Program-made: the position numbers and the translations under genes
Notes under the pieces: model-generated
Told to the model about the DNA's origin: nothing
What the model saw: only the letters and a program-made list of their open reading frames with translations
Database searches by the model: none
Source: Chamaesiphon sp. 336R_metabinner_41
Lineage (GTDB): Bacteria; Cyanobacteriota; Cyanobacteriia; Cyanobacteriales; Chamaesiphonaceae
NCBI GenBank assembly: GCA_025359915.1
Contig: JANYDE010000073.1
Location: forward strand, 994 to 64,993
DNA length: 64,000 bases
Direction of reading: 5' to 3'
Shown: positions 20,609 through 64,000 of the stretch, in pieces
Layout of the letters: each line of letters opens with the position of its first letter
Position numbering within the stretch: position 1 is the stretch's first letter

Positions 20609-20993
20609 AGATGATGGGTTAACTCTTTATGGTCTGAACTATGATTAGAATGATTGAATGATGGACTATGATGAGCTGCTATCTGAGAATCCTAGTCTAT
20701 CTATTAATCTGACAAATCATAAGCCTAGTCGAAAAGTGCTTAAAAACGAGAATGTTGAGAACATCAAAAATTTTTCAATGATGAGACTGGCTATATTAAA
20801 ACAGACAAACTATCACAGTCATACAGCACCTTCCATCAACACGAAGTGCAGTAATACAAGATGAATAAATCATTATTATGAAACCATATGCTGTATTATA
20901 CTCGTAGTGAAAAAGGAAGTAGAGTCTACGATCTAAAACCATTTAGATCTAAATTCATCCCGATAGTGGTGGGGAAGGTGTGGATATAAGAGT

Positions 20994-21054
20994 GGTAGAT
21001 GCACCCTGATGATTCGTCCCTGACTTATTTCGATAAGTTGGGGCTTTTTCTTTT
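20994..21054 (+). ncRNA. Putative sRNA copy 1 (NsiR1-like)
   Basis: GGTAGATGCACCCTG, then a hairpin with TTCG loop and T tract; TCCCGA 36 nt upstream. Confidence 0.5.
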
Positions 21055-57796: not shown

Positions 57797-58676
57797 CGGA
57801 AGGCGGGGCGCAAGCCCCTGACTTCAGGCATGGGGTCGAGCCTGTCGCGACTTCAGTCGCCTTAAAGCGATTCCGCTGCTTTAGCAGCAGTATGCGCTCC
57901 AAGCGTTCTAATAAGCTCCCGTATGACGGCGGTTTTTGCCAAGAAAACTCTGGAGCGAGAGTGGCTGAGTGAAGTCTCAAACATCCCTCTCCAGCAATCT
58001 GTCATCGATCTAGGAATCATCGACTTTGCTACTTTCGATACTGGGGAGAAGATTAAATCTCCTAAGCCTCTCAAGCGAAGACTTAAAAAGCTTCGCAAGG
58101 CACAGCGCAAACACGCTAGAACCACCAAAGGGAGCAAGAGAAGAGAACGGGCGCGGAAACGAGTAGCTAAGGTTCATGCGAAGATTTCCGATGAACGCAC
58201 AAGACTTTTTGCATAAGTTATCAACTAGAATTATTCGTGAAAACCAAACGATAGTTCTTGAAGATCTTGCAGTTTCCAATATGGTGAAAAACCGTAAGTT
58301 GTCTCGTGCTATTTCTGATTTAGGTTGGCGAAGTTTTAGAACTATGCTCGAAGCTAAATCAGTTATGTACGGTAGGGACTTTCGAGTTATTAGCCGATGG
58401 GAACCAACGAGCCAACGATGTTCATGTTGCGGTGAAATTGGCGGTAAGAAAGAGCTTGCTGTCAGAGAATGGGAATGCCTATTTTGCGGTGCCATACACG
58501 ATCGAGACGTTAATGCAGCGGTGAATATCAAAGTTGCGGGTGGATTGCCCGAAACTCTAAACGGACGGGGAGGATCGCGTAAGACTACCACGAAGGTAGC
58601 GGCTTCCTGTGAAGCGTCAACTATCCCATAGGCGCGAGCAACTTTCGTTGTTCCACTAGTCGGAATCCCCTTGCTT
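57797..58676 (+). mobile_element. Internally deleted IS200/IS605 (ISDra2-like) element
   Basis: TTGAC at 57792-57796 precedes GGGGCGCAAGCCCCTGACTTCAGGCATGGGG left-end hairpin; tnpB fragment; right end begins GGAATCCCC at 58662 and is interrupted. Confidence 0.7.
57923..58631 (+). pseudogene. tnpB: tnpB: N-terminus missing, frameshift near 58200
   Basis: IDLG (RuvC-I) in one frame; DFLHK, VLEDL, CSCCG/CLFCG zinc finger and DRDVNAA in another; CGCACAAGAC instead of CGCAAAGAC. Confidence 0.9.
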
Positions 58677-59834
58677 AACGAATCGAGCCGCTTGCGGTGA
58701 GACAGTGTGTGCGATTCGGTGTAGTTGAATCACGGTATCCAGTCCGTAAATAACACTACCAGCCTGGTATCCAGACATGATACAACAGAAGGGCTGAACT
58801 GTCCGAGAAATGTAGGTGAAAGTCCTACCTCTCAAACTCAGAGATGACTCTCTATCTGCCCACACCGACACGACTCGGAATTCGTGAGAGTGAAGCTGGG
58901 AACAGGACGCAATCAGACATCAATTGCAGATGACACTGGCGTTAACGAGGAGTCCCCATGATGAAACCGAGCCTAGAAAAGCAACCTACTCACAGGCAGA
59001 CGCAATCCAAATGTCTGACCTCGCCAGAGAATAGTATCCCGCCGCGCCAGCATTGAGCAACGGTATGAGTATGGGGTTCTGGCGGTTGAATTGGCTACAT
59101 CTAAAGGGACAACCAATCTCTCGGACGGAACGAATAAAAACGTGATTGAGGTCCGTAAGCGGTCGCGCTCACGGTAGACCAGACGAGAGGATTAACCCCT
59201 CAAACACGGGTAGGATTCGGCGTAATTGCCGAAAGGTGTTCAGACTAAACAACTTGGAGTAAATCATGATTAGACGCAGCGTAAATGCTAGCGAATTATG
59301 GAAAAGCTTCAAATGGAAGAAATTCCAGAAGACGCTGTTCCGGTTACAAAAACGAGTTTACAAAGCAGTTTCAGTTGGAAACAAGCGGTTAGCGCGGTCA
59401 CTACAGAAACTAATTCTAAAGTCTCAGTCAGCTAGACTATTAGCGATTCGACAAGTAACGCAGTTAAACGCGGGCAAGAAGACAGCGGGTATTGATGGCA
59501 AAGCGTCACTCTCATTTGAGGAACGCATCGCAATAGCCAACCTACTTGGCTCACATCATACCGACTGGAAGCACGAAAAGCTACGAGAAATCCCAATCCC
59601 TAAAAAGGATGGAACCATCCGTATGTTAAAAGTGCCCACAATAGCAGATAGAGCTTGGCAATGCCTAGCAAAATATGCACTCGAACCAGCGCATGAAGCA
59701 ACATTCCATGCCCGAAGCTATGGGTTCAGAACAGGACGCTCGGCACATGATGCTCAGAAAATCCTCTTCTCAAATCTAAACAGCAAGGCACATGGAAAAG
59801 ATAAGCGAGTAATTGAACTCGATATCGAAAAATG

Positions 59835-62100
59835 GTGCGATTCGTTGGAGATGAATCACGGTGAAAGCCCGTAAATAACCCTCCCAAGCTGGCTACCAGA
59901 CATGTAGCAATATAAGGCTTGAACTGTCCGATTGATGCAGGTGAAAACCCTGCTCTCCAAACTCAGGAGTAACTCCTTATCTGCCCACGATGACCCGACT
60001 CGGAATTCGGGAGGTTTCGTTGCTGGGAACAGGGCTGAATCAGACGCTAATTGCAAGCGACACTGCGGCTAACAGGGAGTCCTCATGGTGAAATAGTGCC
60101 TAGAAAAGCAACCTACGATGAGGCAGTCGCAATTCCTATGACTGACCACGCTAGAGAATAGTATCCCGCCGCGTATCATTTTAACAGCGGTATGAGTAGG
60201 GGGTTCTAGCGGTTGAAGTGGCACCACCTAAAAGGACTATCAATCTTTCGGTCGGAACGAATAAAAACGTACTTGAGGTCTATGAGTGGTCGCACTCATG
60301 GTAAGCCAGACGAGCGGACTAATTCCCCAAGTACGGGTAGGACAGACCGTAATTGGTCTGAGGTATCCAGAACACACAAACAGATGCAGAGCATGATTGG
60401 ACACAGTTTAACAACTAGTGAATCTTGGAGGAAATTACCCTGGAAGCAATTCCGCCGTAATCTCTTTCGCCTACAGAAGCGCGTGTACAAAGCAGTTCAA
60501 GTTGGTAATAAGCGAAAAGCGAGGTCTTTACAGAAACTGATTCTAAAATCTCAAGCAGCCAGATTATTAGCCATTCGACAAGTAACGCAGTTAAATGCTG
60601 GGAAGAAAACAGCAGGTATCGATGGTAAAGCGTCCCTCAATTTTGAAGAACGCCTTACACTAGCCCACGAGCTATCACAACATCATATCAACTGGAAGCA
60701 TCAGGGTTTACGAGAAATCCCCATTCCTAAAAAAGATGGTTCAACTCGAATACTCAAAGTGCCTACAATGGCGGACAGAGCTTGGCAATGCCTCGCAAAA
60801 TACGCCCTCGAACCAGCACATGAAGCAACCTTCCACGCAAAGAGTTATGGATTTAGACCAGGACGCTCTGCACATGATGCACAGAAAATCCTTCAAATAA
60901 ACCTAAACTCTAAAAACAACGGTATCAATAAACGAGTAATCGAATTAGATATCGAGGCATGTTTCGACCGGATTAACCACTCGTCTATCATGGATAACCT
61001 AATTGCCCCTACAGGGCTAAAGCTAGGCATCTTCAGATGTCTTAAAGCTGGAACGAACGTAGGATTCCCAGACCAAGGCACTCCGCAGGGAGGTGTAGTT
61101 AGTCCTCTGCTTGCAAATATTGCACTCAACGGAATCGAAAGTATCCACAGTTATAACACTCGTTATAACAAGAAAGGAATCCCCACAGGAGACCACAAAG
61201 AACCATCAATCCGATACGCGGACGACATGGTTATTATCCTTCGACCCGAAGACAATGCTGAAGCAATACTTAGAGATATTAGCGAATTTTTAGCTGTCAG
61301 GGGGATGAAAGTTAGCGAAAAGAAGACAAAAGTTACAGCAACGATAGATGGTTTTGACTTCCTCGGCTGGAACTTTAAAGTCCAGAAAAACGGCAAGTTT
61401 CGTAGTACGCCTTCTGTGGAGAATTACAAAGCATTCCGCAAGAAGATAAAAACTATCATTAACAACTCAAACTATGGTTCCACACACAAGGCTGGAAAAC
61501 TAGCCCCCGTGGTAAGAGGATGGAGAAATTACCATAAGTACTGCAAGATGGACGGGTCTAGGAACTCCTTGTACTTTATCCAAAAACGGGCTTATTCAGT
61601 ATTTAACAGGGAGTGTAAACAGAATCGCGACAGCAGTAAAAAGTTACTGAACCAAGCGTTTCCAACAGTCTCTTACTCTGAAAATAAACATATCAATGTC
61701 AAGGGCAATAAATCTCCCTACGACGGCGATTTTTCCTACTGGAGCGAACGACACAGTAAACTCTACGACGGAAACACCTCTAAAGCTATCAAAAAGCAAA
61801 ACCGTAAATGTGCAGCCTGTGGATTAACATTCATCGGTGAAGAAAAGGTACATTTACATCATATAGATGGAAACCACAACAATTGGGACAAAAAGAATCT
61901 AGTAGCAATACATGAATCTTGTCACGATTACGTGCATATGAACAACAGGGGAAAAGTAGTTGAAATATACGAACCCTGCTAATCTGAACCTCACATGAGC
62001 AAAGCGCAAGCTTAGGATATCGGGAGCGCAGTGCGATGAAAGTCGCACGCTGCGATCTAACAGAGAGGGGCGAGGTTTAATAGCCTCCCTCGACTCTACC
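59835..62100 (+). mobile_element. Group II intron 2 (complete, nested in the intron 1 RT gene)
   Basis: 5' GTGCG; DV GAGCGCAGTGCGATGAAAGTCGCACGCTGCGATC (62024-62057); DVI ending CGACTCTAC(C); EBS1 CATTTT pairs with AAAATG, EBS2 CGATG with TATCG. Confidence 0.92.
60393..61982 (+). CDS. ltrA: Group II intron RT/maturase with C-terminal HNH endonuclease
   Basis: GTPQGGVVSPLLANI, YADD (61215-61226), FDFLGW, CAACG...HHIDGNH...HESCH; start 60393 inferred from alignment with the intron 1 ORF. Confidence 0.93.
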   Translation: MIGHSLTTSESWRKLPWKQFRRNLFRLQKRVYKAVQVGNKRKARSLQKLILKSQAARLLAIRQVTQLNAGKKTAGIDGKASLNFEERLTLAHELSQHHINWKHQGLREIPIPKKDGSTRILKVPTMADRAWQCLAKYALEPAHEATFHAKSYGFRPGRSAHDAQKILQINLNSKNNGINKRVIELDIEACFDRINHSSIMDNLIAPTGLKLGIFRCLKAGTNVGFPDQGTPQGGVVSPLLANIALNGIESIHSYNTRYNKKGIPTGDHKEPSIRYADDMVIILRPEDNAEAILRDISEFLAVRGMKVSEKKTKVTATIDGFDFLGWNFKVQKNGKFRSTPSVENYKAFRKKIKTIINNSNYGSTHKAGKLAPVVRGWRNYHKYCKMDGSRNSLYFIQKRAYSVFNRECKQNRDSSKKLLNQAFPTVSYSENKHINVKGNKSPYDGDFSYWSERHSKLYDGNTSKAIKKQNRKCAACGLTFIGEEKVHLHHIDGNHNNWDKKNLVAIHESCHDYVHMNNRGKVVEIYEPC

Positions 62101-62168
62101 TTTCGACCGGATTAATCACTCTGCCATCATGGACAATCTTATCGCCCCAGCAGGACTAAAGCTCGGTA

Positions 62169-64000
62169 GCGCGACTTGAACTGGTCGTTTAGTATGTGGA
62201 GCTTACTCCACTAAGGGTTTCACATCCCTTACCCTCACGGAAAAGACTCAATAGAATTGAGTCTGGTCACGCCCAAGTAGGTAACGAAACAGGCGGAGTG
62301 CAGACCCCGAAAGTAACCTTAACTAGTAGCCTAAATTGGTTAAAGAGCAAGAGGGAGTTATCCCATGATAAACACAAGTGAATTGTCATTTTTAAACTGC
62401 GTTATTTTAGAAGGAGTCAAATAAGGCTGATAGACTCTAACCAAAACGGTAAATGGGTAAAACTTAATGCTTATCGATCATTAAGTTATGTGAATAAAAT
62501 TCCCATCGCAGAAAAGACAATATCTAAAGGATAACAGAAAACTAAATGACACAACAAGGTAAACCCTACAGAGTCTAGAGAAGGTCGAATATCTCTAGTA
62601 AGCCAACCGCAAGGAAGGCAGAACTCTCTGGAGGGTAGAGGATGGATGAGAAAGCAAATGCTGGTTTGTAATGAACTAGATAGAGGTCAACATACCTCTG
62701 ACCGAAAGGAATAGCAGACTTCATCTGGGTCTTATACGAAAGACAAAAATGTCAAAGAAACTAAATCCGAGGATAAGTTAGATGCAGACAATCATGTCTA
62801 CAAACGGACTAAAGAAACAGCTAGAAAACTGGAGCCATATTAAGTGGAAGAAAGTCAACAAGCTAGTTAAGAATCTACGACAACGAATCTTTCGTGCTAG
62901 AAAACTTGGTAACTTCAAAGCTCTTCGGAGTCTACAGAAGTTAATGCAACGAAGCTACGCCAACTTATTATTATCTGTTCGACGCATTACTCAGACCAAC
63001 AAAGGTAAAGCAACGGCAGGAATTGATAGAGAAATCATCAATACCCCAGAGCAACGAGTAATTCTGGTAAATGGATGGAAAGGGGGAAACCTCAAACCCA
63101 CCCGACGGGTAGAAATACCTAAGCCTAATGGTAAGAAACGACCGCTCGGAATCCCAACCGTGCGTGACAGAATCGAACAGGCAATAATTATGAACTCTCT
63201 AGAACCTGAATGGGAAAGCGTGTTTGAACCCAATTCCTATGGATTCAGACCAGGTAGAAGCTGTCAAGATGCTATCGAACAAAACTGGAAAAGATTAAAC
63301 TCAAATCCAAAAGGTAGTAGAGACACATGGGTTCTAGAAGCTGATATTCGAGGATTCTTTGACAATATTGAACATGAATCTATCCTTAATCTGATTAGTA
63401 ATTTCCCAAAAAGACATCTAATCAAAGGATGGTTGAAAGCTGGATTTGTCTTTGATGGAAGATTCAATCCGACAGAGATGGGTACACCACAAGGAGGGGT
63501 GATTTCACCTCTTCTAGCCAACATTGGACTGCATGGACTAGAAATTTACATAAAATCCACCAATCCCAAATTAGGTGTGGTTAGATACGCTGACGATTTC
63601 ATTGTCACAGCTAGAGACAAAGGAAGTCTCGAAAAAGCCCAAATCCAGATCCAACAATGGCTGTCAAAGCGAGGACTCGAACTAAGCGCGGAGAAGACGC
63701 TAATAACGTCAATAGAAGAAGGATTCGATTTTCTTGGATTTAACCATCGCCATTATAATGGCAAGCTTTTAATTAAACCTTCTAAGAAGAAAGTATTAGA
63801 CTTTTGCAAACGGTTAGGTAAAGAAATAAAAGTCCTGTACGGAACAAAACAAGAAGACGTAATCTCTAAATTAAATCCAATTCTCCGTGGGTTCGCCAAC
63901 TACTACAAAGGTGCGGTCAGCAAAGAAACCTTCAGTTACATCTCATCAAGAGTGTGGAGATACCTTTGGTGTTGGTCAAAGCGTAGGCACCCCAACAAAA
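62169..64000 (+). mobile_element. Group II intron 3 (nested in the intron 1 RT gene; runs off the window)
   Basis: 5' GCGCGAC variant; stem AACTTAATG/CATTAAGTT with loop TATCGA (62472-77) pairing with IBS1 TCGGTA (62163-68). Confidence 0.82.
62794..64000 (+). CDS. ltrA: Group II intron RT/maturase (partial; absent from the ORF track because there is no stop in the window)
   Basis: Hand translation open for 402 codons: KRPLGIPTVRDR, SYGFRPGRS, EADIRGFFDNI, GTPQGGVISPLLANI, YADD (63586-63597), GFDFLGF. Confidence 0.92.
   Translation, partial: MSTNGLKKQLENWSHIKWKKVNKLVKNLRQRIFRARKLGNFKALRSLQKLMQRSYANLLLSVRRITQTNKGKATAGIDREIINTPEQRVILVNGWKGGNLKPTRRVEIPKPNGKKRPLGIPTVRDRIEQAIIMNSLEPEWESVFEPNSYGFRPGRSCQDAIEQNWKRLNSNPKGSRDTWVLEADIRGFFDNIEHESILNLISNFPKRHLIKGWLKAGFVFDGRFNPTEMGTPQGGVISPLLANIGLHGLEIYIKSTNPKLGVVRYADDFIVTARDKGSLEKAQIQIQQWLSKRGLELSAEKTLITSIEEGFDFLGFNHRHYNGKLLIKPSKKKVLDFCKRLGKEIKVLYGTKQEDVISKLNPILRGFANYYKGAVSKETFSYISSRVWRYLWCWSKRRHPNK

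Follow-up and report, generated by a model that had tools for sequence, protein, structure and literature searches.

Group II introns are known to proliferate by inserting at conserved sites within other group II introns (PMC2882425, PMC4424553, PMC4476101). In Methanosarcina acetivorans, nested homing into the open reading frames (ORFs) of related introns is described in the summaries of Dai and Zimmerly (2003) given in PMC4424553 and PMC2882425. In Thermosynechococcus elongatus the ORF-less intron TeI3 lies inside the ORF starts of TeI4, which is explicitly presented as a mechanism of proliferation (Mohr, Ghanem and Lambowitz, 2010; PMC2882425), and the plastid twintrons of Porphyridium purpureum belong to one element family with variable exon-binding sites (EBS) (Perrineau et al., 2015; PMC4476101). 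The mitochondrial intron cox1i1149g2 of the Lycopodiaceae likewise nests in other group II introns (Zumkeller, Gerke and Knoop, 2020; PMC7049729). Here, an apparent nest of group II introns was analysed in the draft genome (169 contigs) of the cyanobacterium Chamaesiphon sp. 336R_metabinner_41. The window is the whole stretch of DNA studied, 64,000 nucleotides of contig JANYDE010000073.1 (C29:994–64993); a further 847 bases of the contig were read past its end and are given as window-equivalent positions. The parts of the nest and the element upstream of it lie on the forward strand.

The locus is very probably a three-layer nest, in which a resident group II intron was twice invaded by site-specific retrohoming. 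The reverse transcriptase (RT) gene of this outer intron, intron 1, is interrupted at two places by other introns. Intron 2 (59835–62100; 2266 nt; GTGCG...CTCTACC) is an apparently intact, RT-encoding group II intron placed directly after GATATCGAAAAATG, in the codons D-I-E-K-(C) of RT motif A. Intron 3 (2356 nt; 62169–64000 in the window and on to window-equivalent 64524) begins with GCGCGAC, belongs to another group II family, and is placed directly after CTAAAGCTCGGTA, in the codons L-K-L-G-(I).

Like the M. acetivorans nests, as far as these are summarised, the locus shows repeated site-specific homing into related intron ORFs, flanks without host genes and a perpetual homing site. The summarised nests are archaeal, with up to five layers and ORF-less members, whereas the present one is cyanobacterial, both of its inner introns encode an RT/maturase and one target consists of the motif-A codons. 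As in T. elongatus, related introns of a cyanobacterial family carry diverged EBS loops, and the TeI4h maturase/RT (6ME0) is the nearest solved structure for the RTs of both intron 2 and intron 3. The inner introns of T. elongatus, however, are ORF-less and lie in domain IV, downstream of the first ATG of the host ORF and upstream of the second, whereas those described here encode RTs and lie within the RT catalytic domain, so that the host ORF depends on their removal. As in Porphyridium, the inner and outer introns include members of one family, the EBS vary strongly on a shared scaffold in which the alignment position of EBS1 is fixed, and one inner intron is nested in two different outer introns at one and the same site; Porphyridium differs in being an organellar case, with outer intron-encoded proteins already reduced to remnants and a site described as a target in domain IV, not a catalytic motif. 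What may be new here is the use of catalytic motif-A codons as a target and of this site across several host intron types, together with the twofold appearance of identical guide loops alongside nonsynonymous changes in the self-sites.

The nested arrangement is carried first by the joins in intron 1. Its 5' segment (58709–59834) starts with GTGCG, comprises domains I to IVa and the N-terminus of the RT ORF, and has matches to Pfam RVT_N and RVT_1. Three breaks interrupt the RT ORF: intron 2 lies after 59834, intron 3 after 62168 and an insertion sequence after window-equivalent 64708. The N-terminal piece (59266–59834) ends with ...ELDIEK plus TG, and the middle piece (62101–62168; FDRINHSAIMDNLIAPAGLKLG plus A) continues in frame and holds the intron-binding sites IBS2 and IBS1 of intron 3. 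When the inserts are removed, 59266–59834, 62101–62168 and 64525–64708 form a single open RT frame of 274 codons which reads ...ELDIEKCFDRINHSAIMDNLIAPAGLKLGIFRCLKAG...YADDMVI, with the frame exactly restored. Both joins are identical base for base to unoccupied alleles in relatives, as expected of a twintron. The third break consists of an insertion-sequence end (AAGTACCTAGACG...) located after YADDMVI; the contig stops soon after, and the 3' end of intron 1 is absent from it. Intron 1 and intron 2 share 77% identity over domain I, and their RT genes 74.8% over 567 nt.

The boundaries of intron 2 were defined by comparison. Its 5' end, GTGCGATTCG, recurs in 25 family copies, all from other genomes and with unrelated sequences upstream, and domains V and VI were matched by Rfam RF00029 at 62022–62099 (51.7 bits). 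The 3' end, ...CTCTACC (62094–62100), lies one base past both this match and the usual AY, and position 62100 was fixed by restoration of the host frame in eight of eight nested copies, namely those of this genome, of a sister genus (G029) and of six metagenome contigs; the hosts of these copies carry both TGT and TGC cysteine codons. The C at 62100 was also considered as a +1 frameshift in the RT gene of intron 1. This was dropped, and the base was assigned to intron 2, because only with a ...CTACC end are all eight nested hosts in frame. The termini are GTGCG...CTACC for intron 2, against a consensus of 5' GUGYG and 3' AY, and GCGCG...GAC for intron 3. The stop-free RT/maturase ORF of intron 2 (60390–61982) has matches to Pfam RVT_N, RVT_1 and GIIM; its longest frame opens at the TTG at 60213, and a protein of 531 aa is predicted from the first ATG, at 60387.

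For intron 3, the 5' end GCGCGAC is common to most of 24 family copies with unrelated flanks. The RF00029 match to domains V and VI (42.7 bits, window-equivalent 64447–64524) ends exactly where the intron ends. Its RT ORF (62782–64443; 553 aa) is intact, with Pfam RVT_N, RVT_1 and GIIM. Both inner introns appear to be intact mobile-type group II introns, for which splicing and retrohoming are predicted. It should also be noted that H-N-H-like C-termini were seen by eye in the RTs of both, with no Pfam match at threshold, and that 17 of the 24 copies in the intron 3 family (loci L033–L059) begin with GCGCG in place of the consensus GUGYG, with GTGCG, GGGCG and ATGCG as further variants.

The single-sequence minimum free energy (MFE) folds of domain I of introns 1 and 2 were no better than those of shuffled sequences (z 0.09 and 0.65) and were uninformative, so the EBS loops were assigned by covariation with the 5' flanks across relatives and not by folding. 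When 60 related genomes were searched for the intron 1/2 family, 29 of 61 genomes proved to contain copies. The 17 full domain-I copies that were aligned share a conserved scaffold with only two hypervariable blocks: five bases following AACCTA, which represent EBS2, and a hairpin loop, closed by GCCGC/GCGGT, which represents EBS1. Among the 16 copies with a readable flank, EBS1 pairs with positions −6 to −1 of its own flank at 5.75 of 6 bases, against 2.37 for foreign flanks, and EBS2 pairs with positions −12 to −8 at 4.5 bases, against 2.1. For nine full copies of the intron 3 family the corresponding values are 5.78 of 6 against 2.32 (EBS1) and 4.56 of 5 against 1.90 (EBS2). The pairing of introns 2 and 3 with their insertion sites is real and far beyond chance. 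In both families the alignments show EBS loops that have been swapped freely on a conserved scaffold, each copy fitting its own flank. One further member of the intron 1/2 family (L025, G038:C35:792) was located at another site of an RT ORF, after ...FKLQKRIY in RT domain 0, with matching EBS1 and EBS2.

By this register, EBS2 of intron 2 is CGATG (60116–60120) and EBS1 is CATTTT (60177–60182), the latter in a 14-nt hairpin loop whose GCCGC/GCGGT stem shows compensatory changes in the family alignment; the loop is also present in the MFE fold. The target in the RT gene of intron 1 (59823–59834) consists of IBS2 TATCG (59823–59827), a spacer A and IBS1 AAAATG (59829–59834). EBS1 forms six of six Watson-Crick pairs with it, and EBS2 four plus one G-U. 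EBS2 of intron 3 is TTTAG (62406–62410), covarying with flank positions −13 to −9 in nine family copies; EBS1 is TATCGA (62472–62477), covarying with −6 to −1 in the same number of copies and located in the loop of a hairpin, CTTAATG...CATTAAG, which also appears in the fold. The target is IBS2 CTAAA (62156–62160), a GC spacer and IBS1 TCGGTA (62163–62168); EBS2 pairs at five of five bases. The original prediction had given EBS1 of intron 3 a six-of-six match to TCGGTA, and all six positions do pair, but as five Watson-Crick pairs and one G-U. The hexamers on which that prediction was based were otherwise recovered where it had placed them, including the perfect match of CATTTT to AAAATG, and the domain-I alignment agrees with its statement that introns 1 and 2 carry different EBS loops at the same spacing, 61 nt from EBS2 to EBS1. 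Its proposal that EBS/IBS pairing accounts for both insertions is borne out by the covariation at both sites, and retargeting of the EBS on a shared scaffold by all 16 copies with a readable flank, from different genomes, each of which matches its own flank.

From these data the following course of events may be proposed. Intron 1, seated in the right end of a decayed IS200/IS605 element, would have served as a landing pad. Intron 2, a sibling of intron 1 (~75–77% identity), would have inserted after D-I-E-K-(C) by pairing of EBS2 CGAUG and EBS1 CAUUUU with TATCG-A-AAAATG, and intron 3, of a different family, would have inserted 68 nt further along the host ORF by pairing of EBS2 UUUAG and EBS1 UAUCGA with CTAAA-GC-TCGGTA. 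Intron 1 itself is probably now dead, as its RT gene is cut by the insertion sequence just beyond the window.

The same motif-A junction was found outside this genome, in agreement with the idea that sibling introns parasitise a conserved RT motif. The sister-genus genome G029 contains a 5'-truncated ortholog of intron 2 (92% identity) with the same EBS1 loop, which ends ...CTCTACC/TTTCGACAAG (the slash marks the junction) and is nested in a quite different host RT gene of the FDKIDH type (FDKIDHKFLMQ...). A metagenome scan for the 3' junction of intron 2 detected six more nested cases, on contigs L205, L206, L209, L210, L212 and L213. L212 is a complete twintron with both D5/D6 matches, the inner intron being 94% identical to intron 2, and L209 holds an ORF-deleted derivative of intron 2 (96–100% identity). 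The intron 2 lineage thus occurs at DIEx/CFD in this genome (G000), G029, L212 and L209, and one inner lineage at one ORF site of different host introns is the pattern by which nests of the Methanosarcina type are recognised. The junctions show this lineage to be dedicated to the motif-A codons D-I-E-K-C, and the site to be used in at least three host intron types. The remaining four contigs (L210, L213, L205 and L206) carry a second inner lineage at the same site, only ~70% identical to intron 2. In L210 the inner intron has the same EBS2 CGATG and EBS1 CATTTT, with different flanking bases. A tree based on the first 1125 nt makes this inner intron the sister of its host (100/100), well separated from intron 2, and monophyly of the three specialists was rejected with a log-likelihood drop of 199, for a clade chosen after the tree was seen. 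Motif-A specificity probably arose at least twice. The three readable 5' junctions, GATATCGAAAAATG in G000 and GATATTGAAAAGTG in L212 and L210, are all pairable EK alleles.

The DIEK/C and LKLG/I junctions were detected by pattern searches in this genome only, among 401 genomes of the order, and in the family-level search a domain I with CGATG plus CATTTT was likewise found only here. A contig scan with GAYATHGARNNNTGGTGCGAT was too loose and gave uninformative chance matches in unrelated bacteria. It was also observed that one relative (L183, G005:C43:31000–48000) has four RT genes within ~9 kb, one of the intron 1/2 family, two of the FDKIDH type and one other, whose motif-A sites are all pairable or near-pairable and none occupied.

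It had been proposed that retargeting allows intron 2 to avoid inserting into itself. The equivalent site in its own RT gene (60950–60961; TATCG A GGCATG) is unoccupied and encodes DIEA instead of DIEK, with the codons GAT ATC GAG GCA TG (GATATCGAGGCATG/T). IBS2 is intact, and EBS1 against GGCATG (60956–60961) gives three Watson-Crick pairs, one mismatch at −4 and two G-U pairs, as predicted. Rough RNA duplex energies were −1.3 kcal/mol for the real target and +0.8 to +2.8 kcal/mol for this self-site; overall, such estimates favour real targets by 2 to 10 kcal/mol. None of the GGCATG or TAGGCA alleles was found to contain a copy of intron 2 or intron 3. Within this genome the one matching allele is occupied and the one non-matching allele is empty, which follows the expected relation of occupancy to IBS match but, with n = 1 each, has almost no power.

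The design of the guide bears on how such a site can be lost. In the loops of intron 2, U faces the third positions that are purines (−3, −6) and G faces those that are pyrimidines (−9, −12), a pattern which may be a simple reflection of an A- and C-rich founding target. All synonymous variants of GAY-ATY-GAR-AAR-TG stay pairable, and the Ile codon ATA alone introduces one mismatch; because the wobble tolerates synonymous variants, only an amino acid change lets a copy escape. Every readable self-site of a specialist is unpairable, with EA in G000, L212 and G029 and KK in L210 and L213. In the KK allele (GACATAAAAAAATG/C) the E-to-K change breaks two EBS2 pairs and leaves IBS1 perfect. Each of the two specialist lineages therefore has a nonsynonymous change in its own motif, EK to EA and EK to KK. 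Were a specialist to keep a pairable motif, its own progeny would be expected to invade it, and only variants with an unpairable self-site could thus persist as invaders; the change may have been permissive beforehand or selected afterwards. We tentatively suggest that parasitism of the motif A of sibling RTs is a recurrent "hyperparasite" lifestyle, with guides that tolerate synonymous variants (bar ATA), in which persistence is possible only after protein-level recoding of the intron's own motif and self-immunity was reached twice (EK to EA, EK to KK). This is a possible reading, though a somewhat doubtful one.

The strongest competitor to it is passive divergence alone, by which genes that are 25% diverged would differ at the target without any selective history, since diverged paralogues mostly miss a 6-nt guide, and the apparent protection would be a by-product; the chance that this suffices comes close to even. 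Three differences in the 12-nt site of intron 2 and two in the 13-nt site of intron 3 fit an identity of 74.8%. Several observations weigh against an evolved avoidance. EA alleles occur also in relatives with unrelated EBS loops (G022, G005, G024), so EA is not tied to the CATTTT specificity, and the C-terminal RT protein tree was too weakly resolved to group, or to separate, the EA alleles as one clade. Among 28 alleles from the family's 39 genomes, seven of the 26 non-specialist ones (~27%) are unpairable with intron 2, and with this background both lineages would be unpairable by chance with p ~0.07. In addition, cox1i1149g2 of lycophyte mitochondria differs from the case described here in being inserted into a copy of itself (PMC7049729), a direct counter-example to general avoidance of self-insertion, and such avoidance is therefore no universal rule. 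Related genomes hold 19 pairable alleles, every one of them empty, and none of those genomes has a domain I with CGATG plus CATTTT; given the lack of an invader, these alleles neither support nor refute the pairing code. Against passive divergence it can be said that synonymous drift cannot break the motif-A pairing, as U and G wobble with both alternatives (ATA aside), that escape needs an amino acid change in a motif, ELDIEKCFDRI, whose DIEK is kept in 14 of the 17 non-specialist family members with a readable motif, and that two phylogenetically separate specialist lineages changed it at different codons. The part of the proposal that concerns self-insertion is favoured by the changes that break pairing in both lineages, and weakened by the EA alleles elsewhere and the background frequency. 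As an evolved property of intron 2, self-avoidance would be a reasonable and sharper, though unproven, hypothesis, and the alleles compared are suggestive of it.

Passive divergence fares better for intron 3. The equivalent of its target in the RT gene of intron 2 (61017–61029; CTAAA GC TAGGCA) is unoccupied, with an IBS2 identical in both genes and the two predicted IBS1 mismatches in TAGGCA (61024–61029) at −2 and −5. Both fall at third positions of Leu and Gly codons and are synonymous (CTC GGT against CTA GGC). Of 20 family alleles, five are fully pairable with intron 3, two are short of one EBS2 pair and 13 are mismatched in EBS1. Neutral synonymous divergence between genes that are 75% identical would be sufficient to explain the mismatch, and the claim that intron 2 is specially protected from intron 3 was not sustained.

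A further explanation, that the nest consists of three inactive relics whose EBS-IBS matches record past insertions and are silent on present invasion, is considered unlikely. It would account for the insertion sequence in the RT gene of intron 1, for the truncation of several other family copies, for the single-copy state of introns 2 and 3 in this draft assembly, and for the restriction of both junctions to one genome of the order. However, introns 2 and 3 have full-length, stop-free RT/maturase ORFs, canonical domains V and VI and perfect flank pairing, and the joined pieces of intron 1 remain stop-free over 274 codons, an argument for recent insertion; intron 2 sequences with 94–100% identity in unrelated metagenome contigs also suggest recent spread. 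Recombinational transfer of a domain-I segment, in place of convergent retargeting, is improbable as the source of the EBS1 and EBS2 shared by the two specialist lineages: it is favoured by identical loops in introns only ~70% identical overall, by L210 loops that are not a perfect complement of the present host site (three G-U positions) and by a C-terminal RT tree that is poorly resolved and in places disagrees with the 5' tree, so that recombination could have occurred, but the loop flanks and the 61-nt interval differ (GAGGCAT-CATTTT-TCCAACGG against GCGTAT-CATTTT-AACAGCGG), the L210 inner intron groups with its own host over the entire 5' 1125 nt, and a conserved target imposes the same guide on any lineage that adopts it.

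Retargeting by EBS/IBS pairing makes this locus a clean, sequence-verified natural example of a short base-pairing code that decides which selfish element invades which. Immunity of a retroelement against its own progeny becomes testable with natural alleles (EK, EA and KK; TCGGTA against TAGGCA) which differ by one to three bases. If self-immunity is true, the locus would combine escape of a target site by amino acid recoding in a catalytic RT motif with convergent, identical guide loops; if it is false, what remains is an ordinary twintron like those known from archaea, cyanobacteria and plastids.

Nesting is frequent in the intron 3 family as well, relatives being found at four other sites within introns of the intron 1/2 family (L188 at G004:C338, L189, L187 and L193 in G024, L036 in G056, L046 in G005, L037 and L057). 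The first site lies in the AWQCLA/K codons (position 964; G004 and G024), the second at the C-terminal ...YW/ (G056), the third 25 nt into domain I (G005), and the fourth at GCGCAAGCTTCGG/, just upstream of domain V. Intron 1 holds the exact AWQCLAK target (CAATGCCTAGCAA), which is unoccupied.

Upstream of the nest, a decayed tnpB of the IS200/IS605 type was identified in two overlapping frames (57923–58631), with Pfam matches to OrfB_IS605 and Cas12f1-like_TNB. Intron 1 starts ~77 nt downstream, in the right-end region of this element, and region 57923–58708 is thus a case of one mobile element, with a frameshifted tnpB region, acting as the landing site of another. The 5' exon sites of intron 1 itself (58696–58708) are IBS2 GTGAG (58697–58701), a spacer A and IBS1 CAGTGT (58703–58708); in the family register, EBS2 CTCAC pairs with GTGAG at five of five bases and EBS1 GCATTG with CAGTGT by four Watson-Crick and two G-U pairs.

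The insertion-sequence end that cuts intron 1 (AAGTACCTAGAC / AAGTACCTAAGC..., beside a transposase C-terminus) was found to cut three different group II intron RT genes at three positions (window-equivalent 64709–64847 in the C29 tail, C140:3775–3905 and C129:1–135), each of them at a contig end or close to one. Either a target preference or simply the breaking of the assembly at a repeat could account for this; several other intron family copies in the genome are truncated and end at contig breaks beside the same insertion sequence. An ORF-deleted derivative of the intron 1 lineage is located at C162:10854–11322, with 85% identity over domain I and its own EBS1, TTCGCT, matching the flank AGTGAG. 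Elsewhere in the window, a match to the Rfam family NsiR1 was detected at 20993–21052 (56 bits).

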